Below are positions 33,785-51,335 of a stretch of DNA of 62,499 nucleotides, one piece after another. Numbering within the stretch: the stretch's first letter is position 1; the number at the start of each line of letters is the position of its first letter. A model generated the notes under the pieces. The model had not been told where the DNA came from, searched no databases, and saw only the letters and a program-made list of their open reading frames with translations. This stretch comes from a virus (taxonomy: Duplodnaviria > Caudoviricetes): the IMG/VR virus record IMGVR_UViG_3300049235_000005, positions 1 to 62,499 of that record; one strand, given 5' to 3'. A program made the translations under genes and the position numbers.

Positions 33785-36592
33785 GTGGCTGGCGCGGTTC
33801 GTACCAGCGCCGTTGGCGGGTCGTCCACGGGTACCGCTGATCGTACCGCCACCATCACCCCTGCGTCAGGCGATCTCCTCGTCGTCTTCTGCTGCGTCGC
33901 CGCCAACGCCAACGACACACCCACTTGCTCCGATAACAACGGTGGGGGCACCTACGACCGCATCGACGTAATGAATTTCGCCATCGCAGCGGTGAACTAC
34001 CGGATGAGTGTGTTCATCCGCACGGCGCTGATGGTCAATACCACCTCGACCGTCGTGACCGTTGCCACGGGCAGCAATACTTCCGGCGCAGTCCACGTAC
34101 TAGCTCTCACCGGCGTAACCAAGCTGGGTGCCAACGCCGTCCGTAGCAAGGGCAAGCAGGACAACCAGGCGTCAGGTGGCACGCCCACTCCAGTACTCAA
34201 CCAGAACGCCCTCACTACCAACCCTACCCTCGTAGCCATCGGCAGCGCCGATACCACCACCACGCCCAACGCCTCGTGGACTGAGATTCAGGATACGAAC
34301 TTTGCCAACGACACGGTGGCGCTGGAAACGGCGTTTCGTGCCTCAGGTTTCACCGGCACGTCGATCCCGTGCGGCGCTACTCAGTCCAGTGCGTTCTGCT
34401 CCTTTGCGATGGAGTTGGACATCACAGCGGTGAGCGCGAGTCCCAGTCTCAGCCCCTCCGCTTCTGTTTCTCCTTCATCGTCCAACTCGCCTTCTGTCAG
34501 CCCGAGCCCCAGTGTTTCGCCCAGTTCCAGTAACTCGCCCAGCGTGTCGCCGAGTAGTTCGACCTCACCATCATCGTCAGTCAGTCCATCGCTGTCACCA
34601 TCGTCCTCCACTAGTCCCTCCTCGTCAGTTTCTCCCAGTGTCAGTCCGTCGTCGAGTGTCTCACCCAGTAGCAGCACCAGCCCGAGTGTTTCGCCATCGT
34701 CAAGCGTCTCCCCGTCAAGTTCGACCTCCCCCAGCGTGTCACCTAGCGCGTCCACCAGTCCCAGCAGCAGCGTCTCGCCCAGTACCTCGCCCAGCGAAAG
34801 TGAGAGTCCGTCACCCAGCGAGTCTCCCTCAGTCTCACCAAGCGAGAGCGTGTCTCCCAGCAGTAGCGCAAGCCCCTCGCCCGCACCTGTAACAACACTC
34901 GGGTTGAACTTCCGGCAAACGTCAGACTTCGTTGCCGATGACGTAGATCAAACTTACGTCATTAACGACTCCTACTCCACTCTCAGGGCAGGGTTCACTT
35001 TCGGGTATCAGTCACTTGGAGTCTTGCGCCGGAATCGATCCACCGGAGTTGACGTGCGACTGGCAGGTTGTCACGCCGCTCCCAACGAGGAAGAGACTGC
35101 CTATGTCTTTCGGGTAGATCTGCCCGCGACTGGAACTTATCAAATCAGCCTTGCTCTTGGAGATGCCAGTGCCGCTGGTCGTAGCTATCTTGCAATACGA
35201 GACAACGTTACTACTCTTTTCAGTCTTGGCCCAATTGATACCGCACCAGGTGAATTTGCCGACGCGGAAGGCGCGGTACACACTGCTGCAAACTGGCCTG
35301 TTAACAACGTTGCAGTTGAGTCCGTCTTCACTACCTCTATCCTACGGCTGATATTGGGCACCTCGTCTCCCGATATCGGCGAATCCGTCTTAGCGCATCT
35401 CTCGTTTGCGTTGGTGGAAGGCAGTCCATCATCCTCGGAGTCCCCCTCAATCTCCCCCAGTGCGAGCGTTAGTCCCTCGTCTTCAACGAGTCCAAGTGGC
35501 AGCGAGTCAGCGTCAACTTCTCCTTCACCTTCAGTCTCACCAAGTAGTAGTGTCAGTCCATCGCTGAGTCCATCACCCAGCCTCTCTCCATCGGCAAGCG
35601 AGAGTCCGAGTGTCAGTCCCAGTAGTTCAACGTCGCCGAGTTCGTCTACTTCACCGTCGCTCTCGCCAAGCAGTTCAGTATCGCCTTCATCAAGCGAATC
35701 CCTGTCCACTTCACCGTCGAGCAGCGGGAGTCCTAGTCCCAGCGTGTCGCCTTCGCTCAGCCCCAGTTCATCCACTTCGCCCAGCTCAAGCGAGAGTACA
35801 AGCGTTTCACCGTCGTCTTCAACCAGTCCATCAAGTTCCACGAGCCCCAGTGTCTCCCCGAGCGCGAGTCAGTCACCCTCGTCGTCCTCGTCACGCAGCG
35901 TCTCCCCGTCGTCGTCCAACAGTCCGTCATCCAGTGCCTCACCATCCATCAGCCCTTCGTCAAGCGTTAGTCCGTCATCGTCAACATCCGCCTCAGTATC
36001 ACCCTCTCCCTCACTCAGCCCCAGTGCCAGCGCGTCGCGCTCGGCCTCTCCTTCCGCTTCAACATCCCCATCCAGTTCATCATCCCTGTCACAATCCCCA
36101 AGCAGTTCCGCATCACCCTCCGCTTCCGAGAGTCCGAGCGTGTCGCCGAGTGGTAGCACGAGTCCAAGTAGTAGCGCCTCTGCCAGCGCGAGTCCGAGCG
36201 CTAGTACCAGCCCGAGTGGCTCCACTTCCCTGTCGCCGTCGCCAAGTGGGAGTGAGAGTGCGTCGGCGAGCAGTAGTCAGTCGCCGAGCGCAAGCGGTTC
36301 GTCGTCCCCGTCACCTAGTTCATCCACCAGTGCTAGTGAATCGCCATCGTCGAGCGTGAGCGCCAGTGAGTCCGCGTCCTTGTCGCCGTCATCCTCGCCA
36401 TCAGCCAGTCTCTCACCCAGCGAATCCCTCTCGCCCAGCTCATCCGCTTCATCCAGCCCCTCACCCAGCGCCCCACCTCCGCATCGCGTCACCGTGACGT
36501 TTAGTGCCCGACAGTCGCAGGTAACGATGGTTGGGCGTAGTGGCGGGGCGAGGTTCAGCGCGCGACAGGCGCGGGTTGAGTTCAGCGTGTAG
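33785..36592 (+). CDS. Mucin-like putative virion protein: two beta-rich domains and two long (Ser-X)n/Ser-Pro tracts
   Basis: Tracts at about 34433-34883 and 35423-36469; globular parts ITPASGDLLVVFC and FRVDLPATGTYQISLALGD; C-terminal FSARQ twice. Confidence 0.88.
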   Translation: MAGAVRTSAVGGSSTGTADRTATITPASGDLLVVFCCVAANANDTPTCSDNNGGGTYDRIDVMNFAIAAVNYRMSVFIRTALMVNTTSTVVTVATGSNTSGAVHVLALTGVTKLGANAVRSKGKQDNQASGGTPTPVLNQNALTTNPTLVAIGSADTTTTPNASWTEIQDTNFANDTVALETAFRASGFTGTSIPCGATQSSAFCSFAMELDITAVSASPSLSPSASVSPSSSNSPSVSPSPSVSPSSSNSPSVSPSSSTSPSSSVSPSLSPSSSTSPSSSVSPSVSPSSSVSPSSSTSPSVSPSSSVSPSSSTSPSVSPSASTSPSSSVSPSTSPSESESPSPSESPSVSPSESVSPSSSASPSPAPVTTLGLNFRQTSDFVADDVDQTYVINDSYSTLRAGFTFGYQSLGVLRRNRSTGVDVRLAGCHAAPNEEETAYVFRVDLPATGTYQISLALGDASAAGRSYLAIRDNVTTLFSLGPIDTAPGEFADAEGAVHTAANWPVNNVAVESVFTTSILRLILGTSSPDIGESVLAHLSFALVEGSPSSSESPSISPSASVSPSSSTSPSGSESASTSPSPSVSPSSSVSPSLSPSPSLSPSASESPSVSPSSSTSPSSSTSPSLSPSSSVSPSSSESLSTSPSSSGSPSPSVSPSLSPSSSTSPSSSESTSVSPSSSTSPSSSTSPSVSPSASQSPSSSSSRSVSPSSSNSPSSSASPSISPSSSVSPSSSTSASVSPSPSLSPSASASRSASPSASTSPSSSSSLSQSPSSSASPSASESPSVSPSGSTSPSSSASASASPSASTSPSGSTSLSPSPSGSESASASSSQSPSASGSSSPSPSSSTSASESPSSSVSASESASLSPSSSPSASLSPSESLSPSSSASSSPSPSAPPPHRVTVTFSARQSQVTMVGRSGGARFSARQARVEFSV

Positions 36593-36608
36593 TTCAATTA
36601 GAAAATTG

Positions 36609-36638
36609 TTGACAGGTTAGACAGACGTGCGTTACTAT
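36609..36638 (+). promoter_or_regulatory. Sigma70 promoter (leaderless-type)
   Basis: TTGACA-18 bp-TACTAT, 8 nt before ATG 36647. Confidence 0.65.
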
Positions 36639-36646
36639 CTCGTTTC

Positions 36647-36847
36647 ATGGTAATCGGACAGGTAATCTATAGCTGGCGACAGAAGCACGACATCGGTGTG
36701 CGTGAGATGGGCCAACGGCTGGGGCTGTCACACGGAACCGTCTCCCGGATTGAGCGCGGCGGTCAAGTTGATGCGGAGACGATGTTGAAGCTGGTCAACT
36801 GGCTATTCAGCGGGACCAACGGCACGCGGAAAGGGCGGGGGAAGTGA
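36647..36847 (+). CDS. XRE-family HTH regulator
   Basis: WRQKHDIGVREMGQRLGLSHGTVSRIERG. Confidence 0.88.
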   Translation: MVIGQVIYSWRQKHDIGVREMGQRLGLSHGTVSRIERGGQVDAETMLKLVNWLFSGTNGTRKGRGK

Positions 36848-37443
36848 CCAAAGCCGAGCGCGAACAACGTAGACAGTGGTTACTATTGGAGCCCTGCATT
36901 GGCGGTTGTCCGCACTTCAAACTGGAACGACGACTGTCGAAGCGACTGTTAAGCTGCGGCAAATGTCATCGTGAGAAATGCCTGAAACCAGCACGGAGCC
37001 CGAGCGATGAGTGAGCGGGATGACGGGGATCGCGTGTTTTACCTACTGCTTGTGTTTATCGCCGTAATCGCGCTGAGCTTAAACGCTAAAGGATGCATGG
37101 ATAAGCAGGAGTTGAGCGGTGAACTACGCGACCTCCAGCGGAGAGTGGGCCAGCTAGAAACGGAGCGACGGTGAGCAAGGGTCTTTGCGAATGCGGCAGA
37201 CCGATCTTCGTGGTGAAGTACTGCCGTCCTATGTGGTCCCTTGTGTTGGCGACTATAATCGTTGCGGGTGTCACGCTGGTGTTTCTTGTGGCCTTAATAG
37301 GATTGCTGGTAAGGCAGTCGCGATGAACCAATTCGAAACTGAAGGCCCAACGCTGAGCGAGGTTGCCGTGTTCCTTGCGCTCGTTGTCGGCGTGGTGATG
37401 CTGTGGTATGCAGCGTGTTGATTGACGGATTGATAACTTGAAC

Positions 37444-37629
37444 TTGCGCGGGCGCATTGAGGGCGGTGCGGACAACCGTTTATGGCTATCGGATGATTAA
37501 GCATTACAACGGGTAGCCAGCCGAGCGACCTGAACGCCCACGCAACCAGACCCACGAGACTCCCTTACGCTGCCTGTGGGAGGGCCAGCGGCGGGTTTTC
37601 ATTGAGCCCGTTCCCGAGGGGGTCTCGTG
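37444..37629 (+). ncRNA. Candidate two-domain structured RNA
   Basis: Closing stems TTGCGCGGGCG/CGCCCACGCAA and CACGAGACTCCCT/AGGGGGTCTCGTG, each enclosing two hairpins. Confidence 0.45.
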
Positions 37630-37952: not shown

Positions 37953-40082
37953 ATGAGCAAACTCTCAATCTGTATCCCCTCCCGCAACGAACCCTACCTG
38001 AACCGTACCATCGAGGACATCTTCGCCAACGCGCGCGGAGAAGTCGAAGTGGTAGTTGCGCTCGACGGTTACTGGCCCGAGGGCTGGAAGGAGCTAACCG
38101 CTAAATACCCCAACCTCCACTCGGTCCACTCCGGCGAGCCCATCGGCATGCGCGGTGGGATTAACCGCGCAGTAGCCTCCGCCGCCAGTCGTGGCGCAAA
38201 GTACATCGCCAAGTTCGACGCCCACTGCTCCTTCGGTGAAGGGTTCGACGAGATTCTCAAAGCCGACCTCGCACCCGACTGGATCGTCGTGCCACGCCGC
38301 AAGCGCCTCAACCCCGAGACGTGGACACTGACCGATACCAATAAACCCGACGTTGACTACCATTATCTCAGCTTCCCCGACGACCCGAGCGACTTCGGTG
38401 GTAAGGGACTGAACGGCAAGATCTGGCCGGGGCGTGCAATTACCCGTGCGGAGCACGAGATCGACGAGGAAATGTCATCACAGGGTTCCGGCTGGGCCAT
38501 GCACACGGACTATTTCTACCGGCTTGAGCTAATGGACGAGGCCAACTACGGGAAGTTCTGGAATGAGTTTCAGGAACTCGGGCTCAAGTGCTGGCTCTCC
38601 GGTGGGCGCGTCATGGTCAACAAGAAAACATGGTACTCCCACTGGCATAAAGGGAAATCAGGACGCGGCTACAAACTCCCCGAATCATGGCTCCAGCAAG
38701 GGGCGACCTTCACCCGTAACTGGATCTACAACGACGCATGGGCCAAACAAACCCTCCCCTTTAGCTGGCTCATCGAGCGCTTCTGGCCCGTGCCAAGCTG
38801 GCCGGAGAACTGGCAGGAGGTGTTGTATGCGGAGAGAAAGCCGAGGACGATAGTAGCAGTGACAGGTGCAACGCTTCAGGACATTGATGATCCCGATCAG
38901 GCCAAGCGAGATGAGGAGTTTCCGCCCTTGTTGTTAGGCAAGCCACTCGAAGCCGCCGCAAGCAGCGTGAAGGCGGATGATTATGCGCCAATGGATGGGC
39001 TGGTAATCCAGCACGCTTACTACGGCGTCAAGGACACCTCTGAACATATCGACGTAAGCGAACGTCTCACATCGATGGTAGTTAACGACTCTCTGGACAT
39101 CGTGGTAAACAACTCTACGCTCGTCCCCGGCCAGAATCCGTATCGTGGCAAGAAGAAGACGTTGACGGTTTTCTATTACTACGGCGATGGGCCACTTCAG
39201 ACTATCGAGAGAGATGAGAAGGAATGGTTGATTATTGGAGAAGCGCAGAGAACGGCTAAGCCGGATTTGAAGATTGTGTTCGATAACCCGATGAGCACGC
39301 AGGTTGAGGACTATATCAAAAACACGTCGGTGGAAGTTGGCGGCAAGCGATTCACGCCGTTTGAAGTAGTCCCCGCTCCCGTGAAATCCTATATAGAAAC
39401 TGTCATGGAAGATAAGCCAACCCTGTACGTCCCTGACGGAGTTAACACGCTGGTACCAACCACTCCCGCCGCCCTCAACGACTACCTCATCCGCAAGTTC
39501 TCCATCAGCCCGCAACGCCTCCGTGGGCCAATGCCGATTGAACTGCGGGACTTCCATCGTAACGATCTAGCGCAAATGTTTGCTGAGTTGGGGTTCAAGC
39601 GCGGCGCGGAGATTGGCGTGGCGGAGGGTCGCTACTCCGAGGTGCTGCTCAAGGCCAACCCCGACTGCGAACTACTCCTCGTTGACCCGTGGCACCGTTA
39701 TAGCGATAACCCGCAGGGAAAGTCAGCGGAAAAACACGAGTACGCGTATCAAGAGATGCTGAGGAAGACAAAGGGCTATCACGTGCGGATCGTAAAAGAC
39801 TACTCAATGCACGCGGTGAGAGACGTGCCGCTTCAATTTCTGGACTGGGTTTATATCGACGCTCAGCATCAGTTCGACTACGTGGTTTCCGATCTGGTCG
39901 AATGGTCCAAGCGGGTGCGAAGTGGCGGGATAGTATCAGGGGATGACTACTATCAGCTAAGCGACAGGTGGGGAGCCGGACCAGTGGAGGCGGTACAGGC
40001 GTATACTAACGCTCATAAGATTTCGACGTGGTTTATTTGCGGGGCTCACAAATCGGTGGATTATTTCTGGGTCAAGCCGTGA
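37953..40082 (+). CDS. GT-A glycosyltransferase (ppGalNAc-T-like) + SUEL-like lectin domain + class I SAM methyltransferase
   Basis: SICIPSRNE, KFDAHC, ELGLKCWLSGG, YSHWHK; IQHAYYG..DVS..L...NPYRGKKKTLTVFY; GAEIGVAEG, LVDPW, VYIDAQH, GIVSGDDY. Confidence 0.88.
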   Translation: MSKLSICIPSRNEPYLNRTIEDIFANARGEVEVVVALDGYWPEGWKELTAKYPNLHSVHSGEPIGMRGGINRAVASAASRGAKYIAKFDAHCSFGEGFDEILKADLAPDWIVVPRRKRLNPETWTLTDTNKPDVDYHYLSFPDDPSDFGGKGLNGKIWPGRAITRAEHEIDEEMSSQGSGWAMHTDYFYRLELMDEANYGKFWNEFQELGLKCWLSGGRVMVNKKTWYSHWHKGKSGRGYKLPESWLQQGATFTRNWIYNDAWAKQTLPFSWLIERFWPVPSWPENWQEVLYAERKPRTIVAVTGATLQDIDDPDQAKRDEEFPPLLLGKPLEAAASSVKADDYAPMDGLVIQHAYYGVKDTSEHIDVSERLTSMVVNDSLDIVVNNSTLVPGQNPYRGKKKTLTVFYYYGDGPLQTIERDEKEWLIIGEAQRTAKPDLKIVFDNPMSTQVEDYIKNTSVEVGGKRFTPFEVVPAPVKSYIETVMEDKPTLYVPDGVNTLVPTTPAALNDYLIRKFSISPQRLRGPMPIELRDFHRNDLAQMFAELGFKRGAEIGVAEGRYSEVLLKANPDCELLLVDPWHRYSDNPQGKSAEKHEYAYQEMLRKTKGYHVRIVKDYSMHAVRDVPLQFLDWVYIDAQHQFDYVVSDLVEWSKRVRSGGIVSGDDYYQLSDRWGAGPVEAVQAYTNAHKISTWFICGAHKSVDYFWVKP

Positions 40083-40292: not shown

Positions 40293-42038
40293 ATGGCATC
40301 CCCCGCGTTCGATCTCTCGTTCATTATCCCCGCGCGCAATGAGTTCTTCCACGATCTCGATCTGCTCCACCACACTGTCAATAACGTCTTAGCGAACACC
40401 TCCGACCGCTCCCAGATCATCGTCATCCTCGACGGTTACGACTCCGGCTGGCCCCCGACGCCCTTACCAATCAACCCGCGCGTCACGGTCCTGCATCACG
40501 CCAAGTCCATCGGCCAACGTGCCGCGTGCAACGAAGGCGTGCGCGTGTCTAGCGCTAAGTGGATCTGTAAGCTGGACGCCCATTGCGCCGTTGGCCCACG
40601 GTTCGACGAACTGATGACGGCCCAGTGCGATTATCTGACCACGTTGATACCCGTCCAGTACAACCTCCACGCCTTCTCGTGGTGCTGCAAGCAGTGCAAG
40701 CACGAAACCTATCAAGGGCCAAAACCTGCGAAGTGCGCCAAGTGTGGCAGTCGCTACAGCAAGATTGCCATCAAGTGGCAACCGCGTGGCTGGAAGGAGC
40801 GGGACGGGGTCTGGGAGGGCAGGCCGAAGACGACGGCGTGGCGCTTCGATTCAGCTCTGCATTTCCAGTACTGGGGCGAACTTGGCAAGCGCTACCCGCC
40901 CGGCCAGCAACTAACCCCGACTCTCTCCTGTCTCGGCGCGTGCTGGATGCTGCAACGGGAAAGGTACTGGGAACTGGAAGGGATGGACGAGCAGCACGGT
41001 AGCTGGGGTCAGCAGGGGACTGAGTTAGCCTGCAAGTCGTGGCTTAGTGGCGGGCAGATGCTGGTTAACCACGATACCTGGTTTGCGCACTTGTTCCGCA
41101 CGCAGCAGGGGTTTGGGTTTCCCTATGCCAACCCCGGTATCGAGAAGGCCCGTGCGCGCAGTAAGGAGATATGGTTGAACGGCAAGTGGCCCAAAGCCAA
41201 GTATCCGCTGAAGTGGCTGATTGACAAGTTTGCCCCAGTGCCTGACTGGTCCAATACGAAACCGAAGGGCGCGGCGATTTACTACACATGCGGTTCGCAT
41301 GATCAAACGCTAGAACTCGCCGCTCGCAACAATCTGCGCCACTCCACCAACGGCCACGAACTCGGCTGTGTCGCGCTCCAGCGTACCGACTTTGGTGACT
41401 GGACAGTGGTGCTCAACAGGGAGAAGTCTGGGGCGACGATGCACTACCAGATTGTCGCTGGACTGGAGCGGTCTACCGCCGACTACGTGTTTCTGTGTGA
41501 GAGTGACGTGATGTATCACCCGTCACATTTTGAGTTCGTTCCACCTGACGACAACACTATCTACTACAACACCAACGTGTGGCGAGTGCGTTACGGCGAC
41601 GGTCACGCGGTTCGTACCGCCAACCTCCAACAGGTCTCCGGTATCTGCGCCAACCGTGAACTGCTACTAGCCCACTACCGCAAACGAATCGCGTTCATCG
41701 AAGCCCACGGCGGCATCTTCGACACTCGCCGCATGGCCTACGAACCCGGTACGCGCGGCAAGTTTGGCGACGAGCAAATCGACAACTGGCAGTCGGCTTA
41801 TCCGAACCTCGATATCACCGGGCATGGGCAGACGTTGACGACCCCGCACTTTTCCGTTGACAGTTTTCGTAATAAGAAACATGCTGAAGGCTGGCAGGAG
41901 ACTGACGAGGCTCTGCCGGGATGGCCCAAAGTGGCAGGGCGAGTAAAGGAATGGTTGCACGGGCTTGCTACAGGAAGTGCTAATGAAGATGAGCGACCAC
42001 GACTATCGGCGGTTGGTCAAGGAACTGAAAGACCCTGA
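40293..42038 (+). CDS. GT-A glycosyltransferase (ppGalNAc-T-like) with Zn-ribbon insert and a second GT-like domain
   Basis: SFIIPARNE, KLDAHC, CKQC..CAKC, WGQQGTELACKSWLSGG, FAHLFR; C-terminal YVFLCESDVMY. Confidence 0.88.
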   Translation: MASPAFDLSFIIPARNEFFHDLDLLHHTVNNVLANTSDRSQIIVILDGYDSGWPPTPLPINPRVTVLHHAKSIGQRAACNEGVRVSSAKWICKLDAHCAVGPRFDELMTAQCDYLTTLIPVQYNLHAFSWCCKQCKHETYQGPKPAKCAKCGSRYSKIAIKWQPRGWKERDGVWEGRPKTTAWRFDSALHFQYWGELGKRYPPGQQLTPTLSCLGACWMLQRERYWELEGMDEQHGSWGQQGTELACKSWLSGGQMLVNHDTWFAHLFRTQQGFGFPYANPGIEKARARSKEIWLNGKWPKAKYPLKWLIDKFAPVPDWSNTKPKGAAIYYTCGSHDQTLELAARNNLRHSTNGHELGCVALQRTDFGDWTVVLNREKSGATMHYQIVAGLERSTADYVFLCESDVMYHPSHFEFVPPDDNTIYYNTNVWRVRYGDGHAVRTANLQQVSGICANRELLLAHYRKRIAFIEAHGGIFDTRRMAYEPGTRGKFGDEQIDNWQSAYPNLDITGHGQTLTTPHFSVDSFRNKKHAEGWQETDEALPGWPKVAGRVKEWLHGLATGSANEDERPRLSAVGQGTERP

Positions 42039-42106: not shown

Positions 42107-42499
42107 ATGGCTAACGAATGTCTCGCACAGTTTAACGAGCGCTCCACCGTAACCGTCACGGCTACCTTCATTGACGAGTCCGGTACCGAAGTTGAGCCCG
42201 ACGCTGCTACTTATCGCATTGACGATGAAGCTTCCCGTACCAGTATCCAACCCGCTACCACCATCAGCCCGCTTGGCGAATCAGTTGACCTCGTCATCAC
42301 CAGCGACCAGAACTTCATCGTCAAGTCACGCAACCAGTCGGAGATTCGCACGGTGACAGTGGAATGGGATTATACGTCGGACAATGGCCCGGCCCACGGC
42401 ACGGCGCAGTATCGGTACAAGCTGGTTAATCTGTATGGCGTGGTGGATGTGGCCAGTGCGAGTGTTAGCCCATCAGCGAGTGCATCACCGTCGGCTTGA
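42107..42499 (+). CDS. Ig/BppU-like putative virion protein with C-terminal SP tag
   Basis: Beta-rich TVTVTATFIDESG..EPDAATYRIDD; ends ASASVSPSASASPSA. Confidence 0.7.
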   Translation: MANECLAQFNERSTVTVTATFIDESGTEVEPDAATYRIDDEASRTSIQPATTISPLGESVDLVITSDQNFIVKSRNQSEIRTVTVEWDYTSDNGPAHGTAQYRYKLVNLYGVVDVASASVSPSASASPSA

Positions 42500-42786
42500 T
42501 TATGATCACCTTAACCGAACTTGAAAGACGAGTGATAAGCGCCGCGATTTACGCGGTCTGTGGTTCGGGTAGCATTACAGCTCAGTGCCGTAGTGACGCG
42601 GCGGTGCTAGTGCTGGTTTGGGCGCGAGCTTCGGGTAAGACGCAGTTCGACGCTGACGACATAGACGCTAAAACCGAGCAGGCTTATCGGTACTTTGAGT
42701 TTGGTGATTCATTTGGCGAGCCGGAACCCGAGTGGGCTATCTGGGACGATCCAAGTCCGAGTGCCAGTACCAGTCCGAGTGCATAA
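42496..42786 (+). CDS. Hypothetical protein with C-terminal SP tag
   Basis: Ends PSPSASTSPSA. Confidence 0.65.
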   Translation: MIMITLTELERRVISAAIYAVCGSGSITAQCRSDAAVLVLVWARASGKTQFDADDIDAKTEQAYRYFEFGDSFGEPEPEWAIWDDPSPSASTSPSA

Positions 42787-43137: not shown

Positions 43138-44835
43138 ATGGGCAAACCTTTCCCATCATGGACCTACGATGACGCCGCCAACCGCATTGGCGCACGGTTC
43201 GCCCTCCCGACTGAGGGTACGCGAGACTTTCGCTTACCATCCATTCTCGAAGATCTCATCGGCGTCAGCGATCACCGCCCTGCTACTCGCCGTACGGAGA
43301 CTGCGCTACGCGCGACAATGTTCTATCAGGCAGACCACTGGCAAGGCGGGACTGGGTTCATCGGTCAGTTACCGCCCGCTTCCCTCCCCGGTGCGGAATC
43401 AATGAAGAACGCGATTCGCAAAGCTTTCGTCTCGGAGAACGTGGTCAAAGAGGTAGTGAAAACCCACGTCGGCGGGATACTGGGCCGCGAACCTTCGTGG
43501 TCCTTCATGGTTACAGAAGGCGAGGAATCTCGTAACCAGTTCTCCAAAGAGACAGGTAATACGCTGACTCGCTGGTGGAATGATCGACTCGCGCTCAAGG
43601 ATCTCCAGAAGGCCGCGCGTATCATGGTTTGCGAAGGGACGGTTGTGCGGCGGCTGGTGTTCCCGCGTGGGCGATTAGCAGGCGGGACTAAACCTAATGC
43701 TTCCACTCTACTTGCCGCTCTCGACTTCATCTTCTTCGAGACGGTGTACGCAGATCGCGGCATGGTCTACACCGACCCTGAGACGATGGCGGATGTTGGT
43801 ATCTTCCTGTTTGATGAACTGGATGCGAACGGTGACGTGAAGACCAACTGTGCCGAACTCAGTTATCTCAACGATGACGGAGACACTGTTTGCAAGATTG
43901 TCCGCGACAAAGGCGCGCCAACTGAGTACCCACCCTATCCTCTCGGCGGTCGCCTACTCATCTACGAGATGACCCGAGACGCGCTAATCACCGAACAGAT
44001 CCAGTCGAACCAGCGCGCGGTCAATCTGGCCCATACGCAGATGATCCGCAACGTCAACCTCGCAGGCCATCGCCAGCAGACGATTACCAACGCGGTTCCA
44101 CCGGGGCCAACCAATGAGAAGCCGACGATCACCGAGGATACGACGAAGGTGGACGCGACTCCCGCTACTACTAGCCCTGTGACCAAAAAGTTTCCCGGCA
44201 CGTTCAAAACAGGTGCAGGGGCAGTCAACTTCCTGATGGGTATGCCGATCTACAGCGAAGAGGGCATCGTCGTCGGCTACACCGACCCCGGCATCAACAT
44301 CAGTGATCCAGTGTCGGTTGAAACCTTTGAGCGCACGATTGAGCGCGAGAAGGCGGCTATTTACGCACAGGCCCATCAGCGTCATGTGCTCATCGTTGAC
44401 AAGGCCGACACCAGTGGACGTGCCCGTGAAGTAGCCCGGCGTGAGTACGAGCGCTCGCTGAAGGAGTCGAAGACTGAACTCGACGCCTGTGGTCGCTGGC
44501 AGTTGGAAACAACCTTGCGTCTCGGCGCGTTCATCATCGGCGAATCGTCCCGCTATCTTCCCCTCCGCGCCGACTTCAACACGCTAATTGACGCTGGAGC
44601 ACCTGACCCTGAACAGCAGCAGATGGCCTTGCAGATGCGCCAACCGGGCGGCATGAAGAATCGTCCGTTGATTAGCGATGAGACTGCGCGGGCGCTTAGT
44701 GGCGTGGAGGATAACGCGGCTGAAGAAGCACGGATCGACAAAGAGGCAACGATGCCCGAGGCCGATCTACCCGAGAATCCGCAAGCTGTACCCGGCCAGC
44801 AAACGCCCAAACCTGCCAGCGAATCCGTTAATTAA
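43138..44835 (+). CDS. Portal protein
   Basis: 565 aa; FYQADHWQGG...ENVVKEVVKTHVGGILGREP...SGRARE...ISDETA; precedes scaffold and capsid. Confidence 0.8.
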   Translation: MGKPFPSWTYDDAANRIGARFALPTEGTRDFRLPSILEDLIGVSDHRPATRRTETALRATMFYQADHWQGGTGFIGQLPPASLPGAESMKNAIRKAFVSENVVKEVVKTHVGGILGREPSWSFMVTEGEESRNQFSKETGNTLTRWWNDRLALKDLQKAARIMVCEGTVVRRLVFPRGRLAGGTKPNASTLLAALDFIFFETVYADRGMVYTDPETMADVGIFLFDELDANGDVKTNCAELSYLNDDGDTVCKIVRDKGAPTEYPPYPLGGRLLIYEMTRDALITEQIQSNQRAVNLAHTQMIRNVNLAGHRQQTITNAVPPGPTNEKPTITEDTTKVDATPATTSPVTKKFPGTFKTGAGAVNFLMGMPIYSEEGIVVGYTDPGINISDPVSVETFERTIEREKAAIYAQAHQRHVLIVDKADTSGRAREVARREYERSLKESKTELDACGRWQLETTLRLGAFIIGESSRYLPLRADFNTLIDAGAPDPEQQQMALQMRQPGGMKNRPLISDETARALSGVEDNAAEEARIDKEATMPEADLPENPQAVPGQQTPKPASESVN

Positions 44836-44841
44836 CCACTT

Positions 44842-45887: not shown

Positions 45888-45899
45888 GAGACTGAATCC

Positions 45900-46319: not shown

Positions 46320-46333
46320 GGAGCGCTTGAGCG

Positions 46334-47383
46334 ATGAGATCACTAATCCCCGTAGTTGAGGAGCTATCGCCTCCCTCTCTTACTGTGGTGGCACAGACCA
46401 TTTCCGCCAACGACTCCGGTCGCCTGCGCTGGTCCACCTTCTTCCCCCGGCAGGACGTAGACTCGGTTGACCTGCGTGAAGTGACGACAATCGACTTCCG
46501 CCCCACCTCGGATCGACGTGAGTGGAACTCGCGCGGGCGACTCATCCCCGATAAGACCCCACCGACTCGTGAACTCTCGATCATTCCCGTCGAGGGCTAC
46601 TACAAGTGGAACGAGTACGAGATGCAGAAGCTGGCCGAGCGGGCAGCGGCTAACTCAGAAGTCATCGACCAGATCATCGGGCGTTCCATCCCCGGCAAGG
46701 TGGCGCAGATCGTCGAAGCCAACTATCGCCGTATTGAAGTTGATGCTTTCACCGCATGGGCTACCGGCACCAACGTGGCAATGAACCCGCAGACAGGGCA
46801 GACCACGGCGTTCACCTTCGGCTTCCCGGCAGACCGTCTCACCACGGCAGGCACCGCATGGGACGACCCCGGCCAGAATGCCTACGATTTACTGATCTCC
46901 TTTATCGAAGATGCAATTGACAAGATTGGCCCGGTGGTCGGCGTGGTCCTACGTACCGCTCTCCATCGCGCCATCCACGCTGACGCCCCCAACGGCCCAC
47001 TGGGCACAATCATCCCGCGTGGGCGTATCGCCGAGCAGGTCAGCGACGACCTCGGCATTCCCTTCAACTTCTTCCTGTTTGACGACACGCTGGAGGTGTT
47101 TACCGATGGCGGTATCACAACCACCCCGGCAAACGTCTGGCCTGCTGGCTACATTGCCGCAGTGCCATCAGGCGGGGTAGTTGGCCGCACGGCCTTTGCG
47201 CCAGTGAAGCGCGCAATGGAGATGGTGCGGTCGTTGCCAAAAGCTGGCATAGACCAGCGCGGGCAAACAGTCTACTACGACGAGTCGGTGATGGGACGTG
47301 ATTTGACGGTTGAGGTCCAGGTTAACCCACTGACGATCCCGAACGAGCAGAAGCTTCGGGTCGAAAACACACTCGTCACATAG
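46334..47383 (+). CDS. Major capsid protein (lambda gpE-like, HK97 fold)
   Basis: 349 aa; FFPRQDV...RRIEVDAFTAWATG...TAWDD...; position. Confidence 0.8.
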   Translation: MRSLIPVVEELSPPSLTVVAQTISANDSGRLRWSTFFPRQDVDSVDLREVTTIDFRPTSDRREWNSRGRLIPDKTPPTRELSIIPVEGYYKWNEYEMQKLAERAAANSEVIDQIIGRSIPGKVAQIVEANYRRIEVDAFTAWATGTNVAMNPQTGQTTAFTFGFPADRLTTAGTAWDDPGQNAYDLLISFIEDAIDKIGPVVGVVLRTALHRAIHADAPNGPLGTIIPRGRIAEQVSDDLGIPFNFFLFDDTLEVFTDGGITTTPANVWPAGYIAAVPSGGVVGRTAFAPVKRAMEMVRSLPKAGIDQRGQTVYYDESVMGRDLTVEVQVNPLTIPNEQKLRVENTLVT

Positions 47384-47394
47384 GAGTCGAATCG

Positions 47395-47613: not shown

Positions 47614-47661
47614 CGAGCTACGCACGGCTAACGCCGGAGATCCCAGTGGTCAGGAGAGCTT

Positions 47662-48069
47662 ATGTGGTTTCAAAAGATTAACAACCGCCTCATGCGCACT
47701 TATTCGAACAACGGGCGCACCTATGGGGCGATTGCGTTTGGACGAGACTCAGCAGGGAAGTATGTGGTCGTGGGTTGTGAGACTGATCTTGTAGTCGACT
47801 CATTGTTTACGAATGGCTCAGCAAGTGGCTATGGCAAGGGCTCCATCTGTATGCGTATCGCAGGTGGGATGAGCGTGGTTGACGCAGACGGCCTGTGGCA
47901 GACGGTCACGTTGACGACGGTGAGCCAGTCGGTTTCTCCAAGCCACTCGGTTTCGCCTAGTTCGTCAGCTTCAGCCAGTGCCAGCTCGTCGGCTTCGTTA
48001 TCGCAGTCGCCGAGTGCGTCGGCGTCGCGAAGTGTTTCGCCCAGCGCATCGGCCAGTCCGTCGGCGTGA
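47662..48069 (+). CDS. Putative capsid decoration/fibre protein with ~48-aa C-terminal Ser/Pro tract
   Basis: YGKGSICMR domain followed by SQSVSPSHSVSP...SASASPSA. Confidence 0.75.
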   Translation: MWFQKINNRLMRTYSNNGRTYGAIAFGRDSAGKYVVVGCETDLVVDSLFTNGSASGYGKGSICMRIAGGMSVVDADGLWQTVTLTTVSQSVSPSHSVSPSSSASASASSSASLSQSPSASASRSVSPSASASPSA

Positions 48070-48075
48070 TGAGTT

Positions 48076-48408
48076 ATGCCAAGCCCTACTCCGACAGACG
48101 AGGATATCGACTTCGTACGCGAGGTCGCAGGTGAGGGCAGTTTTGAATTCGTCGCCACGCTCATTGACAACTTGAACGACGCGCAGTGGTCCCGAGCGTT
48201 GGACTTCGTTACCGCTTGGAACAACTACGAACCCGGTAGTGTGATGGAGTTGGTGAATGGTGGCAGAGAGGGTGTGAACGAGAAGGATCAGGACGCGCTG
48301 ATGGATATTCGACGAAGGTTGCGACTCCTGCTGGGCCTGCTCGAGTTCAGAGATGGAGACGCTAGCTTCTTCCGCTCAACTTCAGTGCCGGTGCTATGGG
48401 TATTTTAA
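48076..48408 (+). CDS. Putative head-tail adaptor
   Basis: Helical 110 aa; position. Confidence 0.5.
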   Translation: MPSPTPTDEDIDFVREVAGEGSFEFVATLIDNLNDAQWSRALDFVTAWNNYEPGSVMELVNGGREGVNEKDQDALMDIRRRLRLLLGLLEFRDGDASFFRSTSVPVLWVF

Positions 48409-48411
48409 CCA

Positions 48412-48774
48412 ATGGACCGATCAACACGTATCGCCCGAGCAATAGCCCGCGCACACGACCGACTGCGACCGATCTTTGTGCAGGAACAATGCGTGAAGCT
48501 GCTGGCAGGAGACCAGAACAACTGGGGCGAGCCGATTGCGAGCTACGACTCCCACTGGTATCTCGACAAGCACGAGTATTTAGATGTCGCGGCGGGCAAG
48601 CGTTACAAGCGGCTGCTGATCGACGACGTGGAGGGATGCAGGTTGGCTAAATTGAAAGCAATGACAGCGGTGCAGATTGGCGATGACATCTACACCTTTC
48701 ACGGCAAGGATTCATTCGTTGGCGCGGTGCCGAATTACGAGTTTAAGGTGGTCCATGCGGGAGTGAGGATTTAG
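48412..48774 (+). CDS. Putative head closure protein
   Basis: Beta-rich 120 aa; position. Confidence 0.5.
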   Translation: MDRSTRIARAIARAHDRLRPIFVQEQCVKLLAGDQNNWGEPIASYDSHWYLDKHEYLDVAAGKRYKRLLIDDVEGCRLAKLKAMTAVQIGDDIYTFHGKDSFVGAVPNYEFKVVHAGVRI

Positions 48775-49215
48775 ATGGGCGAGTTAGTCACAATCGAACT
48801 TGGCTCAATCTTCCATAACTTCCGCTCGCGAGTGGAAGGGTTGCGCGACAGTGTCACCGCAGCCGGTGGCAAGATTCTCCGCACCGAGGAAGAGTCCAGT
48901 ATCCGCCTCCGCTGGTACGACCGAGGGGTGACGTTGCGCTCGCTACAGGAGCAGACCACCACCGAGGGAGAGGCGCGTATCTACCGCCTGTTTCCCACCG
49001 CCACCAGCAAAGGCGGTGCTCCTTATCCGCTGTTTGGTGAGTACGGTACGGGACGCGAAGGGGCGCGGACAGGTGGACCACCTCCAGCGAGCTATCGGTA
49101 CGGCGATTCAAAGGGCATGCGAGCACGGCGCTACGGTCGCATTGCGGTGACGCAGGCGAGGCCGAAGGTGATGGCGAAGGCTGGCGAACTAATACGGAAC
49201 TTTACGGTGAATTGA
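48775..49215 (+). CDS. HK97 gp10-like tail completion protein
   Basis: GVTLRSL...YPLFGEYGTG...GMRARRY. Confidence 0.7.
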   Translation: MGELVTIELGSIFHNFRSRVEGLRDSVTAAGGKILRTEEESSIRLRWYDRGVTLRSLQEQTTTEGEARIYRLFPTATSKGGAPYPLFGEYGTGREGARTGGPPPASYRYGDSKGMRARRYGRIAVTQARPKVMAKAGELIRNFTVN

Positions 49216-49383
49216 GATGAACTACTGGGAACGTTCAGACAGGCGTGCAATAGCGCGAGTAAAGGAGTCCGAGGACATGCTTTACCTCCCTGACTATCTT
49301 GACGCTGAGGGCCTACAGGTGTGGTACGGCGACATTCACCGCTGCGTGGTGGACGGTATTCTTGAATACGTTGGCTATTAAAT

Positions 49384-49947
49384 GTGCCAGTTCCAACCGC
49401 AAACCAGATTAAGACGCAGTTGAAAACCTTGCTGACCCCCGTTATCGGCACGGCGCAGACGAAGAAGGTAAAGATCTTTGACTACTTGGCACTGGCGTTC
49501 AAATCGGAAGAGGGGACGGAGGTAGCAATTCTGCGCTCACCTCTCGATGTAGCCACTCTTTCCGGCGGCGGCACCGTCCAGCGTGTGAATTGCTTAATGA
49601 TTAGCGAAGCATCGTTCACGCAGGCGAAGGTTCCCGCCAAAGAGGACTACACGCGACTGATTACCACTCCGCGTGGCAAGAACACCATCAGTCGCCAGTT
49701 TCGCCTGACCTACTTCTACCAGTTTGGCGACTCCAGTGAGAACACGTTCTCTACGAACGTCGAGCTAATCAGGACGACCCTGAATAACGTTCCTAAACTT
49801 GGATTCACGGTACCGGGAACAGGCGAGTGGGTAGAAGGACATGACGAGTTGCAGATGCAGGCAATGGACCCTGACAACTTTGGTACAACGGTGGTGCATG
49901 TGGGATTTGGGTTACTAATGGTGAGACTAATTGAGGCACTGGGATGA
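49384..49947 (+). CDS. Putative tail terminator
   Basis: Position before the tail tube gene; alpha/beta pattern. Confidence 0.5.
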   Translation: MPVPTANQIKTQLKTLLTPVIGTAQTKKVKIFDYLALAFKSEEGTEVAILRSPLDVATLSGGGTVQRVNCLMISEASFTQAKVPAKEDYTRLITTPRGKNTISRQFRLTYFYQFGDSSENTFSTNVELIRTTLNNVPKLGFTVPGTGEWVEGHDELQMQAMDPDNFGTTVVHVGFGLLMVRLIEALG

Positions 49948-50501
49948 AATTATCAGAAGCAATACGTGAAGGCTCCAAGCTCCGGCCCCGAGTCGGCGTG
50001 CTGGGCGAGAGATTCTCCCACGTCGAAGGGCGTGGGCTATGCTCTGACATTTGGGGCGCAGCGGTGGAAGCCGTTCAGCCAGCGGTGGCAAACTTCAACT
50101 GGAACAAATCCAACACCGATGCTTTTCAACGTTCGATGGATGCGTTTCGCGCTATCCAGCTTCAGTATTTCGCACCCTACTTCCAGATGCCCTTGCACTG
50201 TCCCGGCCTACGTCAAAACGTGATGAAGGTGGGCGGGCGGCTAATCAACCGCTTTGGCAAAGAGCCGGAACTGAAGACCTACGACAGCTACGCGCGTATT
50301 GAGAACTTCGGCGGTATCACCAGCGAGTGCCCAAAGGTGGAGCATCTTGCGGGTATGGTGGACCACTTGTATCACAAGCATCGTGTTCTAGCAGAGAAGA
50401 TCGCCAACTGTGTCGAGGAGTATGAAAACGCCTGCGAGCAGGGGGCACGACAAATCGCAATCAATCGTAATTTCACGCATTACGCAGCCAATTGGAGGTA
50501 A
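49944..50501 (+). CDS. Hypothetical protein inserted in the tail operon
   Basis: MKLSEAIREG N-terminus; ATGA-coupled. Confidence 0.7.
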   Translation: MKLSEAIREGSKLRPRVGVLGERFSHVEGRGLCSDIWGAAVEAVQPAVANFNWNKSNTDAFQRSMDAFRAIQLQYFAPYFQMPLHCPGLRQNVMKVGGRLINRFGKEPELKTYDSYARIENFGGITSECPKVEHLAGMVDHLYHKHRVLAEKIANCVEEYENACEQGARQIAINRNFTHYAANWR

Positions 50502-50504
50502 CTT

Positions 50505-51335
50505 ATGGGACTCTGGTCAGGACAAGGCCCGGTATTCTGGGCCAATCGAGACGCGAACGGCGATCCAATCGCTCCTTTCACGTGGTTTGGTAATGCGCCC
50601 ACGTTCGAGTTCGGCATGGCCGTGGAGGAACTGACGCACAAAGAGTCGTACTCCGGCCTGCGCGCTATTGACGCGCGCATCGATACCGAACTGAACTCCA
50701 GTGTCAATCTCACGGTTGACGACTTCAAGGAAACGAATCTGGAGTTGGCTGCCCGTGGTGAGGCTTCAACTCTGGCTGGTGGAGTAGTTACAGCCGAAGT
50801 GGTACTCAGTGGCGCGCCTGCACTTAACACGCTTTACGCAGTTAAGGGCGCGACCGGGCGTGTGACCGGATTCACGCTCACCGACAACGGTTCTCCGATC
50901 ACGTCAACCAAGTACTCGTGGGACGCGTCAGGCGTGTTCCAGTTCAACGACATCGCAGGCATGACCGGGCCAATTGCTGCCACTTACACTAACGCGGCCT
51001 CGCGCCAGCTAGGTGTATTCAAGCGCGCCGCGCCTGAAATCTGGGTGCGGATGATTGGTAAGAACACGGCAGTAAACTCCGGTGTGGACTTCGAGCGGCT
51101 GATTGTTGATGCGTTCAAGGTACGGCTGAGTCCTGCCGAGACGATCAGCCTCATCAGCGACGAGTTCAATACGCTGGCGTTTACAGGTTCGGCGCTGGCT
51201 GATACTACTCGTGCGCAGTCCGACCCCGAAGGCCAATTCGCACGGTTCATCTACCTCGACCCCGGTTCCGCTGTAGCGTCAGCCTCGGTGAGCCCGTCGG
51301 TGTCGCCATCGGCTTCAGCGAGTCCGTCAGCCTAG
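50505..51335 (+). CDS. Major tail (tube) protein with C-terminal SP tag
   Basis: WSGQGPV...WFGNAPTFE...THKESYSGLR...KVRLSP...LISDEF..L.FTGSALAD; ends ASASVSPSVSPSASASPSA. Confidence 0.88.
   Translation: MGLWSGQGPVFWANRDANGDPIAPFTWFGNAPTFEFGMAVEELTHKESYSGLRAIDARIDTELNSSVNLTVDDFKETNLELAARGEASTLAGGVVTAEVVLSGAPALNTLYAVKGATGRVTGFTLTDNGSPITSTKYSWDASGVFQFNDIAGMTGPIAATYTNAASRQLGVFKRAAPEIWVRMIGKNTAVNSGVDFERLIVDAFKVRLSPAETISLISDEFNTLAFTGSALADTTRAQSDPEGQFARFIYLDPGSAVASASVSPSVSPSASASPSA

Follow-up and report, generated by a model that had tools for sequence, protein, structure and literature searches.

Mucin-type O-glycosylation is initiated by the ppGalNAc-Ts of family GT27. The animal enzymes generally prefer Thr as acceptor, and Pro at positions +3, +1 and -1 is favoured by GT27 enzymes. 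Giant viruses coat their particles in the cytoplasm with transferases of their own (chlorovirus capsid, mimivirus fibrils), but the hosts of these viruses are eukaryotes, and both the enzyme families and the acceptors differ. The serine-rich repeat systems (GtfA/GtfB) employ GT-B enzymes and accessory Sec export. Among phages, virion glycosylation was reportedly described for Che8 and other Cluster F mycobacteriophages by Freeman et al. in Cell Host Microbe in 2023, where the Che8 glycans are said to occupy the C-terminal ends of capsid and tail-tube subunits. Two papers present Che8 virion glycosylation as demonstrated by experiment (PMC11256854, PMC13445384). Two further papers describe Gram-positive serine-rich repeat glycoproteins as proteins with extended arrays of S-x dipeptides, which receive their O-glycans in the cytoplasm (PMC7948813, PMC6973325).

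The window, i.e. the whole 62,499-nucleotide stretch of viral DNA analysed, is a 62.5-kb siphovirus genome with overlapping ends: Bases 13-138 repeat the window's end at 62374-62499 (126/126 bases identical). Sequence comparisons and structure models make it likely that this phage glycosylates its own virion proteins, using two GT27-like enzymes and Ser-rich tags.

The two transferases and their nearest relatives

The first part of the late module comprises the following features:

31815-33449, + strand: large terminase subunit (phrog_2, E 2.1e-25), start of the late (+ strand) module
37953-40082, + strand: GT-a, 709 aa, GT27-like GT-A domain, middle domain and SAM-dependent methyltransferase
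40293-42038, + strand: GT-b, 581 aa, GT27-like GT-A domain followed by a second GT-A domain
43138-44835: putative portal, 565 aa, called from position and size alone
46334-47383, + strand: major capsid protein (phrog_29, E 9.8e-11), without tag

As the first-pass annotation had stated, a pair of GT-A paralogues lies between the large terminase gene and the putative portal ORF, which matched none of the PHROG families. Both GT-a and GT-b match PF00535 in Pfam, and hhalign identifies the N-terminal domains of the two as paralogous (probability 99.9%). In GT-a, the GT27-like domain comprises residues 1-286, with DAH at about residues 89-91 and a His within a WYSH motif; D89, H91 and H230 are invariant in the GT-a alignment A6. 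A middle domain (about residues 290-540; Pfam match to PF11875 at 347-424) and a C-terminal Methyltransf_24 domain (residues 553-666, Pfam) follow. In GT-b, the GT27-like domain (residues 1-320) contains D95-x-H97, a WGQQGTE motif and H266, and is interrupted by a zinc-ribbon-like insert with four Cys (C132, C135, C148, C151). All 21 homologues in alignment A1 retain D95, H97 and H266. The second GT-A domain of GT-b (about residues 322-560) carries a CESD (ExD) motif. Its model (pLDDT 91) has a GT-A fold with heparosan synthase 2 as best match (E 7.1e-7), and E82, D84 and H91 of this domain are invariant in alignment A3.

According to profile and fold comparisons, the nearest solved relatives of both catalytic domains are eukaryotic ppGalNAc-Ts (GT27). 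When the A1 profile of the GT-b homologues was compared with PDB sequences, the 15 best matches were all ppGalNAc-Ts (E 6.5e-11 to 1.5e-5), and the alignment takes in DxH (LDAHC), the Gal/GalNAc-T motif (WGxxGxE) and the third His (WFAH). The A6 profile of GT-a, 286 positions long, aligned with ppGalNAc-Ts at positions 4-253 (E 3.9e-8 to 3.4e-5). Among its 17 matches with E < 1e-4, 14 were ppGalNAc-Ts, starting at profile position 3-4 and ending at 211-253 of 286; GT2 structures align to the first 85-100 positions only. A Foldseek search with the AF2 model of GT-b (pLDDT 85) listed exclusively GT27 chains above rank 50 (E 2.6e-14 to 4e-12). The first non-GT27 family, chondroitin polymerase, appeared at rank 50, and in this search the E-values of GT27 are better than those of other GT-A folds by a factor of roughly 100. 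The choice between GT27 and GT2, which the first-pass annotation had left to such searches, thus falls on GT27, by profile for both enzymes and by fold for GT-b.

Three GT-A domains and a methyltransferase mean that some of these domains must work on sugars and not on peptide. This would suit a scenario in which a host enzyme places the first sugar on the tracts and the phage enzymes merely extend or methylate the glycan. The retention of the full GT27-like site by both paralogues argues against it.

Serine tracts in late proteins

The first-pass annotation had placed Ser/Pro tracts in the late region and seen none in early genes. This distribution is confirmed: Among ORFs of at least 60 aa, a tract with at least two SP is present in 8 of 31 late ORFs and in 0 of 53 early ORFs (Fisher p = 1.8e-4). 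The marginal case among the eight is ORF 1285-3291, which has only the 8-aa SPSPSPSA. In a six-frame scan, long (S-x)n tracts were confined to the ORFs 33785-36592, 42107-42499, 42496-42786, 47662-48069, 50505-51335, 58601-61405 and 16-1263. They belong to the following features:

33785-36592, + strand: mucin-like protein, 935 aa, 35% Ser (translation, tract scan)
42107-42499, + strand: small protein, 130 aa, C-terminal tag SASVSPSASASPSA-stop at 42455-42496
42496-42786, + strand: 96-aa ORF with TTG start, terminus SPSASTSPSA-stop
47662-48069, + strand: 135-aa protein directly after the capsid gene, 87-aa globular part and 48-aa tag
50505-51335, + strand: major tail (tube) protein (phrog_807, E 3e-51)
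58601-61405, + strand: tail hub or tip protein, 934 aa (phrog_1101, E 3.7e-70)
61402-62499, + strand: first part of a tail protein gene (phrog_1082; about 740 aa, crosses the record junction)
139-1263, + strand: second part of the same tail protein, tracts at 1063-1182 and 1189-1260, terminus SPSI-stop

The last two entries, listed in the first-pass annotation as the tract carrier 61402/16-1263, are indeed one gene over the record junction (126/126-base end overlap).

In the mucin-like protein, residues 1-216 and 367-546 form non-repeat domains, and the two (S-x)n/SxSP tracts measure 150 aa (34433-34882) and 350 aa (35423-36472). It matched no Pfam or PHROG family, and in NCBIfam only serine-rich and MSCRAMM repeat models, far below cutoff. 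Its middle domain shares 55% identity with a portion of a 1421-aa ORF in L035. The 130-aa protein has a 14-aa terminal tag in every orthologue (8 relatives), and homologues are present in 15 of 80 GT loci. A protein atlas groups it with small viral proteins of unknown function, which is a lead only. ORF 42496-42786 has no homologue in the relatives, so this gene call is based solely on the in-frame terminal tag. In the 135-aa protein, the (S-x)n tag occupies 47923-48066 and ends with SPSA-stop; across 9 orthologues, Ser is invariant at alternate positions and x varies. Its position makes it a candidate head fibre or decoration protein. The tail tube ends in the 18-aa tag SASVSPSVSPSASASPSA-stop (51279-51332). 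Since the phrog_807 match comprises residues 3-250, this tag is extra to the family profile. All 7 of the 7 tail-tube orthologues in phages with the transferases are tagged, with invariant alternate Ser and variable x. In the tail hub, a 96-aa (S-x)n linker (60434-60721) connects the conserved N-terminal part with a concanavalin-like C-terminal domain (Laminin_G_3, PF13385, E 2.1e-7). Of the glycan coat that had been envisaged on head, tail tube and tail tip, the tagged tube and hub fit the tail portion, but the major capsid protein is untagged. Candidates for tags on the head side are rather the small proteins encoded at 42107, 42496 and 47662.

SPSA-stop closes four proteins and SPSI-stop one. 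All six Ser codons are used in the tags, and the same peptide is encoded by differing DNA in different genes, which means that the tags are not a DNA repeat. Their Ser positions are invariant among orthologues and their x positions variable. Judged from these patterns, the tags are selected at the peptide level. Thr is found in tracts at x positions only (7% in the window, 1% elsewhere), and acceptor positions are almost purely Ser. The low complexity of the tracts and the lack of a homologue for the 96-aa ORF might suggest functionless noise or assembly artefacts. This is hardly credible, as the tags are in frame with mixed codons, the stop codon lies exactly at the tag end in five genes, and the tag position is kept among 8 related contigs from different records.

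Co-occurrence of enzyme and tracts

The association of enzyme and tracts, on which the first-pass annotation had staked its proposal, works both ways and extends to unrelated phages, although it is not absolute. A strict tract is present in 67 of 80 viral loci fetched by enzyme (33,032 aa in total in 1.32 Mb) and in 10 of 18 genome-bin loci with enzyme. Only about 8 of the 80 loci have structural or other genes in common with this phage. The enzyme module is itself conserved: GT-a is found in 60 of the 80 loci, the second GT-A domain in 67 and the methyltransferase in at least 57. No strict tract was detected in 13 of the 80 loci, and 8 had none even under a loose rule; for 5 of these 8, the scan was extended to the remainder of the record (21-49 kb; completeness 24-55%) and still yielded no tract. 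One of these 5 records carries a portal gene and further sugar enzymes.

Three terminal tags are present in 8 of 8 capsid relatives with the enzyme. Tracts are present in none of 7 relatives without it, including an untagged tail-tube orthologue; the 5 capsid relatives without the enzyme (0 of 5 records matched in the enzyme search) have no tags. L125 has the whole tail module in common with this phage and no enzyme in the 35 kb of sequence searched. Its tail-tube orthologue (54% identical) ends untagged with FARFIYFDA, and its hub orthologue (639 aa) terminates before linker and lectin-like domain. Three tagged tail tubes come from fragments that do not include the enzyme region and so have no bearing on the association. 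In the reverse test, contigs were selected with a DNA pattern encoding SPSxSPSxSPS, and their tracts were recorded before the enzyme was searched for. Among 66 searchable records, three contained large mixed tracts (708, 732 and 236 aa), and the same three were the only ones with the enzyme. The 63 others, with short (SP)n linkers or chance matches, were without it (Fisher p = 2.2e-5). In addition, 64 tract-bearing ORFs of unrelated enzyme-bearing phages were scanned against PHROGs. Of 25 among the 26 families matched, six have a functional description, and each of these names a component of the virion: tail, Dit, head closure, minor tail, tail fibre and structural protein. As tags on particle proteins are confined to phages with the enzymes, the phage very probably sugar-coats its own particle.

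Alternatively, the transferases might act off the phage proteins, on a lipid carrier, on DNA or on a host envelope polysaccharide in the course of seroconversion or superinfection exclusion, and the tracts would be unmodified linkers or 'bristles' in the same exchangeable module. Many phage GT2-type enzymes are annotated as auxiliary or host-takeover genes, for example in PHROG descriptions, and some enzyme records encode further sugar genes (a GlmS-like aminotransferase, additional GTs) but show no tracts in the portions scanned. Nevertheless, this explanation is unlikely. The link between enzyme and tracts persists between phages without other detectable common genes as well as in the blind reverse test, and tracts occur in many different proteins across the structural module and not in a single cassette. 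The closest solved relatives are peptide-modifying enzymes, and strict conservation of alternate Ser with x free is more than a spacer requires. As for DNA, no hypermodification genes were found among the 10 largest early ORFs. Initiation by a host enzyme is improbable as well: There are no tracts where the phage enzymes are absent, and enzyme loci in genome bins of very different phyla make reliance on one host initiator implausible.

The proposed system and its described counterparts

Glycosylation of Ser-tagged virion proteins by the phage is thus supported, as far as computation goes, by enzyme fold and co-occurrence. Two soluble GT-A transferases, expressed with the late genes, would probably attach the first sugar to peptide Ser. 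The second GT-A domain of GT-b would probably extend the glycan and the SAM methyltransferase of GT-a methylate a sugar; GalNAc is only one possibility for the sugar used. The portable acceptor would be disordered tracts in which every second residue is Ser and Pro is frequent (SxSP). Three small late proteins, the tail tube and a tail protein carry them as C-terminal tags, the tail hub contains one as a linker, and the mucin-like protein has arrays of 150 and 350 aa. The enzymes would load these tracts in the host cytoplasm, using nucleotide sugars, and the particle would come to carry glycans on its tail, its tail tip and probably its head appendages. We infer both the acceptor role of the tract Ser residues and the order of the enzyme steps. 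Such a coat might serve for shielding, desiccation resistance or stiffening, as the first-pass annotation proposed.

With GT27, the phage enzymes share the closest profile and fold, the aligned DxH, Gal/GalNAc-T motif and third His, and acceptors in the form of disordered Ser/Pro-rich arrays; SxSP puts Pro at +3, +1 and -1 of its three serines. However, identity is just 16-20%, and the phage acceptor is Ser, not Thr. The phage enzymes lack the ricin-type lectin domain and a membrane anchor and would therefore be cytoplasmic. The zinc-ribbon-like insert of GT-b and the fusions to a second GT-A domain or a methyltransferase are further differences. Serine-rich repeat glycoproteins resemble the phage proteins in their S-x repeats, and the mucin-like protein weakly matches their repeat models, but here GT-A enzymes, Pro-rich tracts and phage parts are involved.

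Like Che8, this phage would use its own phage-encoded glycosyltransferases for its own structural proteins. The domain pair of GT-a recurs in Che8 gp108, a GT2-Methyltransf_24 fusion, and here the tail tube is likewise tagged at the C-terminus. In contrast, there is no detectable homology (BLASTP E >= 0.7; hhalign probability 1.6%), and Che8 also has a GT25-type enzyme. The GT domains found no match in 50,697 GenBank phage records. Che8 proteins end in short TGS or DGS, whereas long SxSP arrays are found here, and the Che8 glycosyltransferase genes are located at the right genome end and not in the structural module. Furthermore, the capsid protein of the present phage has no tag, and tracts are also found as a linker and within a 935-aa mucin-like protein. 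Virion glycosylation is already known from Che8; GT27-like GT-A enzymes combined with SxSP tags would, if true, be a new form of it.

Genome organization and Ser-x tracts in late proteins

The window (62,499 bases, an IMG/VR virus record listed as linear) is estimated to be ~90% complete. Positions 13-138 recur without a mismatch at its 3' end (62374-62499, 126 bases), and the first 12 bases are at odds with this overlap. The two ends of the assembly thus join up, so that the ORF at 61402-62499 runs on at 139-1263. This junction-spanning ORF (61402-62499 + 139-1263) encodes one tail protein of ~740 aa. The early region, in which most genes are located on the - strand, encodes among others an exonuclease, a primase, a Dda-like helicase, a sliding clamp-like factor and a helicase-DNA methyltransferase fusion. 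No tRNA genes were found in the window.

Features of the early and late regions (coordinates, strand, description)
10027-12396, -, 789-aa helicase (phrog_62/16)-DNA methyltransferase (phrog_67) fusion, early region
31815-33449, +, large terminase, late genes
43138-44835, +, 565-aa ORF in portal-gene position, matched no family
46334-47383, +, major capsid protein, late genes
50505-51335, +, tail tube, late genes
+, tail chaperone, late genes
52161-56927, +, tape measure, late genes
+, tail assembly, hub and tail proteins, late genes

The two glycosyltransferase genes, GT-a (37953-40082, 709 aa) and GT-b (40293-42038, 581 aa), had been placed between terminase and portal by the first-pass annotation. 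The 565-aa ORF does occupy the portal position, but its identity is not backed by a family match. Blastn and tblastn of the GT region and of GT-b against 50,697 GenBank phage records yielded no match, and tblastn with GT-a matched via its methyltransferase part only. The phage is without a nucleotide-level or GT-level relative among these records. The capsid protein of the window (46334-47383) shares 97% identity with its counterparts on two contigs (L084 and L085), whereas GT-b is only 57% and 82% and the portal 57% and 85% identical, which indicates strong mosaicism inside the structural module.

A six-frame scan combined with inspection of the translations detected long alternate-Ser tracts only in the ORFs that had been named beforehand, which confirms the original observation. 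Tract-bearing ORFs account for 0/53 early and 8/31 late ORFs (p = 1.8e-4; one of the eight is marginal), in agreement with the earlier statement that early genes are free of them. Four proteins, those encoded at 42107, 42496 and 47662 and the tail tube, end with ...SPSA-stop. The two pieces originally listed as 61402/16-1263 proved to be the single tail gene across the junction; its product carries a tract and has the C-terminus ...SPSI-stop. The tail hub contains an internal tract of 96 aa, and two tracts, 150 and 350 aa long, are present in the 935-aa protein encoded at 33785. The proposed picture of a coated head, tail tube and tail tip needs one correction, since the capsid protein is devoid of a tag; tracts are found in the tail tube, the tail hub, the tail protein and further late proteins.

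At the x positions of the tracts, Pro is most frequent (34%), followed by Ala, Ser, Val and Thr, and prolines are most often spaced by 6 or 4 residues. The presumed acceptor positions are Ser, not Thr. Across nine orthologues of the 47662 protein, the Ser at every second position never changes, and the positions in between are occupied by A, V, G, H, T, P, R, L or Q. The tail-tube tags likewise show fixed Ser and variable x. A DNA-level repeat or a regulatory element as the origin of the tags was considered and rejected, because different genes encode the same peptide with different Ser codons, using AGT, AGC and the four TCN codons.

A search of the protein atlas with two small tagged proteins matched only unnamed viral clusters. 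The family of the 42107-42499 protein comprises ~105-156 aa in the 15 GT loci holding homologues, including distant ones with 32-41% identity. According to the listed coordinates, GT-b is followed by the homologue within 0.1-1.8 kb in all but one of these loci (14/15). Such a protein could serve as a dedicated substrate or act as a helper. In the tail hub, the Ser-x linker adjoins a concanavalin-like (Laminin_G_3) domain (window 60722-61402). Both are absent from the hub orthologue (17593-19512) of L125, an enzyme-free relative of the tail module, so that the gain or loss of linker and domain seems to have been a joint event.

GT-a and GT-b, putative relatives of polypeptide GalNAc-transferases

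Both enzymes match PF00535 (36.2 and 52.2 bits, gathering cutoff 23.3) and have paralogous N-terminal domains, as expected from the earlier description of two paralogous GT-A genes. For GT-b, the comparison with GT27 and GT2 structures that had been suggested there favours GT27, the CAZy family of polypeptide GalNAc-transferases (ppGalNAc-Ts). With a profile of 21 GT-b homologues (A1), the 15 best solved sequences in the PDB are all ppGalNAc-Ts (E 6.5e-11 to 1.5e-5), and the first GT2 match follows at E 1.8e-4. In a Foldseek search of the PDB with the AF2 model of GT-b (pLDDT 85), all chains listed above rank 50 belong to GT27, at a modest margin over other folds and with 16-20% identity. Judged from profile and predicted structure, GT27 is the solved GT family to which GT-b is nearest. 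A PDB search with the single GT-a sequence found no match, so that a profile was needed. The profile of the GT-a N-domain (A6) aligned to ppGalNAc-Ts over positions 4-253 of 286, whereas bacterial GT2 structures covered only the first ~85-100.

The catalytic motifs are conserved. Instead of DxD, a DxH metal motif is present, LDAHC in GT-b and FDAHC in GT-a, and the former aligns with LDAHC of GalNAc-T1. D95, H97 and H266 are invariant in A1, as are D89 and H91 in A6. Furthermore, SWGQQGTE...WFAH of GT-b pairs with IWGGENLE...HVGH of 1xhb, i.e. with the Gal/GalNAc-T motif WGGENxE and the subsequent third His. G239, E244 and H266 of GT-b are invariant. The third His, with which H266 is aligned in this GT27-like site, presumably binds metal.

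The GT-b C-domain profile found no significant match among PDB sequences; hence, its fold was taken from a model. Modelled alone (pLDDT 91), it adopts a GT-A fold, with heparosan synthase, TarP, chondroitin polymerase and blood-group transferases as nearest structures. This second GT-A domain has an invariant ExD. All three transferase domains thus have the GT-A fold, and GT-a ends in a Methyltransf_24 domain. Neither enzyme has a Pfam match to a ricin-type lectin domain. Both start at the first strand of the fold (PF00535 from residues 5 and 9, model strand E8-14) and apparently lack an N-terminal anchor. The module thus combines three transferase domains with one methyltransferase, and all four are apparently cytoplasmic. 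A complex prediction for GT-b residues 1-325 and residues 80-135 of the 47662 protein scored 0.00; it was run without controls and has no bearing either way.

Two additional elements were observed. The GT27-like domain of GT-b is interrupted by a four-Cys, zinc-ribbon-like insert (C132, C135, C148 and C151 in residues 131-152; window 40683-40748), whose Cys residues are invariant in the 21 homologues. It explains why some homologues bear database names like RpoP, rubrerythrin or Zn-ribbon regulator. In GT-a, a beta-rich middle domain between transferase and methyltransferase (residues 347-424; window 38991-39224) matches PF11875 (DnaJ-like C11 C-terminal) marginally, scoring 27.5 bits in the full-length sequence and 29.7 bits when the region is scanned by itself, at a cutoff of 27.1.

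Co-occurrence of enzymes and tracts

The uncultured group with these enzymes is large: 431 family representatives among 1.84 billion reach E of 1e-30 or better. Genome bins with GT-b relatives (L097-L114), whose labels may include binning errors, are assigned to Anaerolineae, Actinobacteria, Gammaproteobacteria, Woesebacteria, Saccharibacteria, Microgenomates, Cytophagia and Gallionella as well as to a Thermoplasmatales archaeon and a Heimdallarchaeote, the latter with a weak, partial GT-b match.

If enzymes and tracts belong together, they should co-occur in other phages; a lack of co-occurrence had been named by the first-pass annotation as a refuting outcome. They were found to be linked in a forward test, a reverse test and a natural experiment, but the association is incomplete, as 13/80 enzyme loci are devoid of a strict tract (≥7 S-x units and ≥2 SP in an ORF of ≥60 aa).

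In the forward test, one scan of viral contigs with the A1 profile matched 125 relatives, and 80 loci were kept. Only ~8 of the 80 share other genes with this phage. A strict tract was present in 67/80 loci, and tracts total 33,032 aa in 1.32 Mb. Among the genome-bin loci, 10/18 had one. The module is preserved in this set, with GT-a in 60 or more of the 80 loci, the second GT-A domain in 67 or more and the methyltransferase in 57 or more; these are minimum numbers, since many loci are cut by contig ends. PHROG was scanned with 64 tract-bearing ORFs from unrelated enzyme-bearing loci. In the 25 of 26 families listed, six are described, and all six are virion parts; most are of unknown function.

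Eight of the 80 loci do not contain even a loose tract. For five of these, the rest of the record (21-49 kb, 24-55% complete) was scanned, and no tract was detected either; one of the five has a portal gene and extra sugar enzymes. This suggests that some relatives of the enzymes use another acceptor or do something else. Two enzyme-bearing records without a Ser-x tract in 49 kb each, G077 (L053, L249, L250) and G078 (L055, L251, L252), encode further glycosyltransferases and aminotransferases, one of them GlmS-like. They may therefore belong to a glycan cluster of another kind, larger and directed at a different acceptor.

A natural experiment was provided by 13 loci sharing the capsid gene. 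The eight from enzyme-bearing contigs have three terminal tags each (14, ~50 and 24 aa). In the five other records, the enzyme profile finds nothing, and no tract exceeds 12 aa. Among the tail-tube relatives, L125 has the whole tail module in common with the window (33-54% identity) and lacks the enzyme in 35 kb. Its tail tube ends untagged with ...FARFIYFDA, and its hub does not extend to the linker and the lectin-like domain. The tail tube of L126 (28% identical) is untagged, too. Three further tagged tail tubes are uninformative, because these short fragments end before the enzyme region.

For the reverse test, a DNA pattern for SPSxSPSxSPS retrieved at least 80 loci, which were scanned for tracts before the enzyme search. 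Most had short (SP)n linkers or chance matches, and three contained large mixed tracts: L136 (708 aa), L152 (732 aa) and L162 (236 aa). The enzyme, in both paralogues, was found in exactly these three of 66 records searched and was absent from 63 (p = 2.2e-5); 14 loci lay outside this search. The enzyme was missing from the records whose scanned loci carried short (SP)n linkers (14-38 aa), so that the idea of any SP-rich linker going with it was rejected.

Taken together, enzymes and tracts are very probably functionally linked. O-glycosylation of the tract serines by GT-a and GT-b is the best explanation and a likely one. A broader view can be put forward only tentatively: Uncultured phages of many host phyla might share a self-contained kit of soluble, cytoplasmic GT27-like enzymes, an extending GT-A and a sugar methyltransferase, which together would write dense O-glycan arrays on any virion protein tagged with a Ser-x/SxSP tract. 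Mucin-like glycoprotein coats would then be common on environmental phage particles, and the enzymes would be prokaryotic-world kin, possibly the source, of eukaryotic GT27.

Significance and relation to known glycosylation systems

If this is true, phage glycosylation would reach well beyond actinobacteriophages, into a large uncultured group. A short peptide tag, e.g. SASVSPSASASPSA at the C-terminus, is predicted to suffice for glycosylation of a protein within the bacterial cytoplasm, which would be of use for the production of mucin-like glycoproteins in bacteria and for the coating of therapeutic phages. In addition, such a coat would bear on the interplay of phage particles with mucus, grazers, antibodies and host defences, and the phage enzymes would offer a prokaryotic-virus relative for studying the origin of mucin-type O-glycosylation enzymes. 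The first-pass annotation knew of no description of the combination. Literature searches of main texts likewise gave no account of GT27-like phage enzymes or of Ser-x tags on phage proteins.

The phage enzymes share with GT27 the GT-A domain, the DxH, the Gal/GalNAc-T motif and the third His. They differ by the absence of the C-terminal ricin-type lectin domain, in place of which GT-b ends in a second GT-A domain and GT-a in a methyltransferase. Judged from the N-terminal start of the fold, they also have no type II membrane anchor and would not act in a secretory compartment. Further departures are the four-Cys insert and second GT-A domain of GT-b and the middle and Methyltransf_24 domains of GT-a. 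Two points speak against the glycosylation reading: The similarity to GT27 is distant (16-20% identity), and the presumed acceptors in the tracts are Ser, not Thr. Serine-rich repeat glycoprotein systems use GtfA/GtfB of the GT-B fold, whereas all three phage transferase domains are GT-A.

Glycosylated phage particles were reportedly found by Freeman et al. in 2023 only in some mycobacteriophages, with little sign of them in phages at large. Among known systems, the virion glycosylation of mycobacteriophage Che8 comes closest. Its gp108 is a GT2-Methyltransf_24 fusion, the same domain pair as in GT-a, gp109 has a weak GT2 match under the Pfam cutoff, and gp110 is a GT25. Of these three proteins, gp108 was aligned with the phage enzymes, and no homology was detected (BLASTP E ≥0.7, hhalign probability 1.6%). 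At an E limit of 1e-5, tblastn of GT-b against the GenBank phage set, which includes the whole Che8 record, was empty; at a limit of 1e-3, GT-a matched other phages by its methyltransferase part only. The acceptors differ, too: Che8-type acceptors are C-terminal, on capsid and tail tube, and these proteins end in ...TGS and ...DGS, whereas in the window the tail tube is tagged, the capsid is not, and other late proteins are tagged instead. Enzyme family and acceptor are both unlike those of Che8. Therefore, the phage seems to realize the same idea with different parts: other enzymes and a long repetitive acceptor, which is also found in a linker and in a mucin-like protein.
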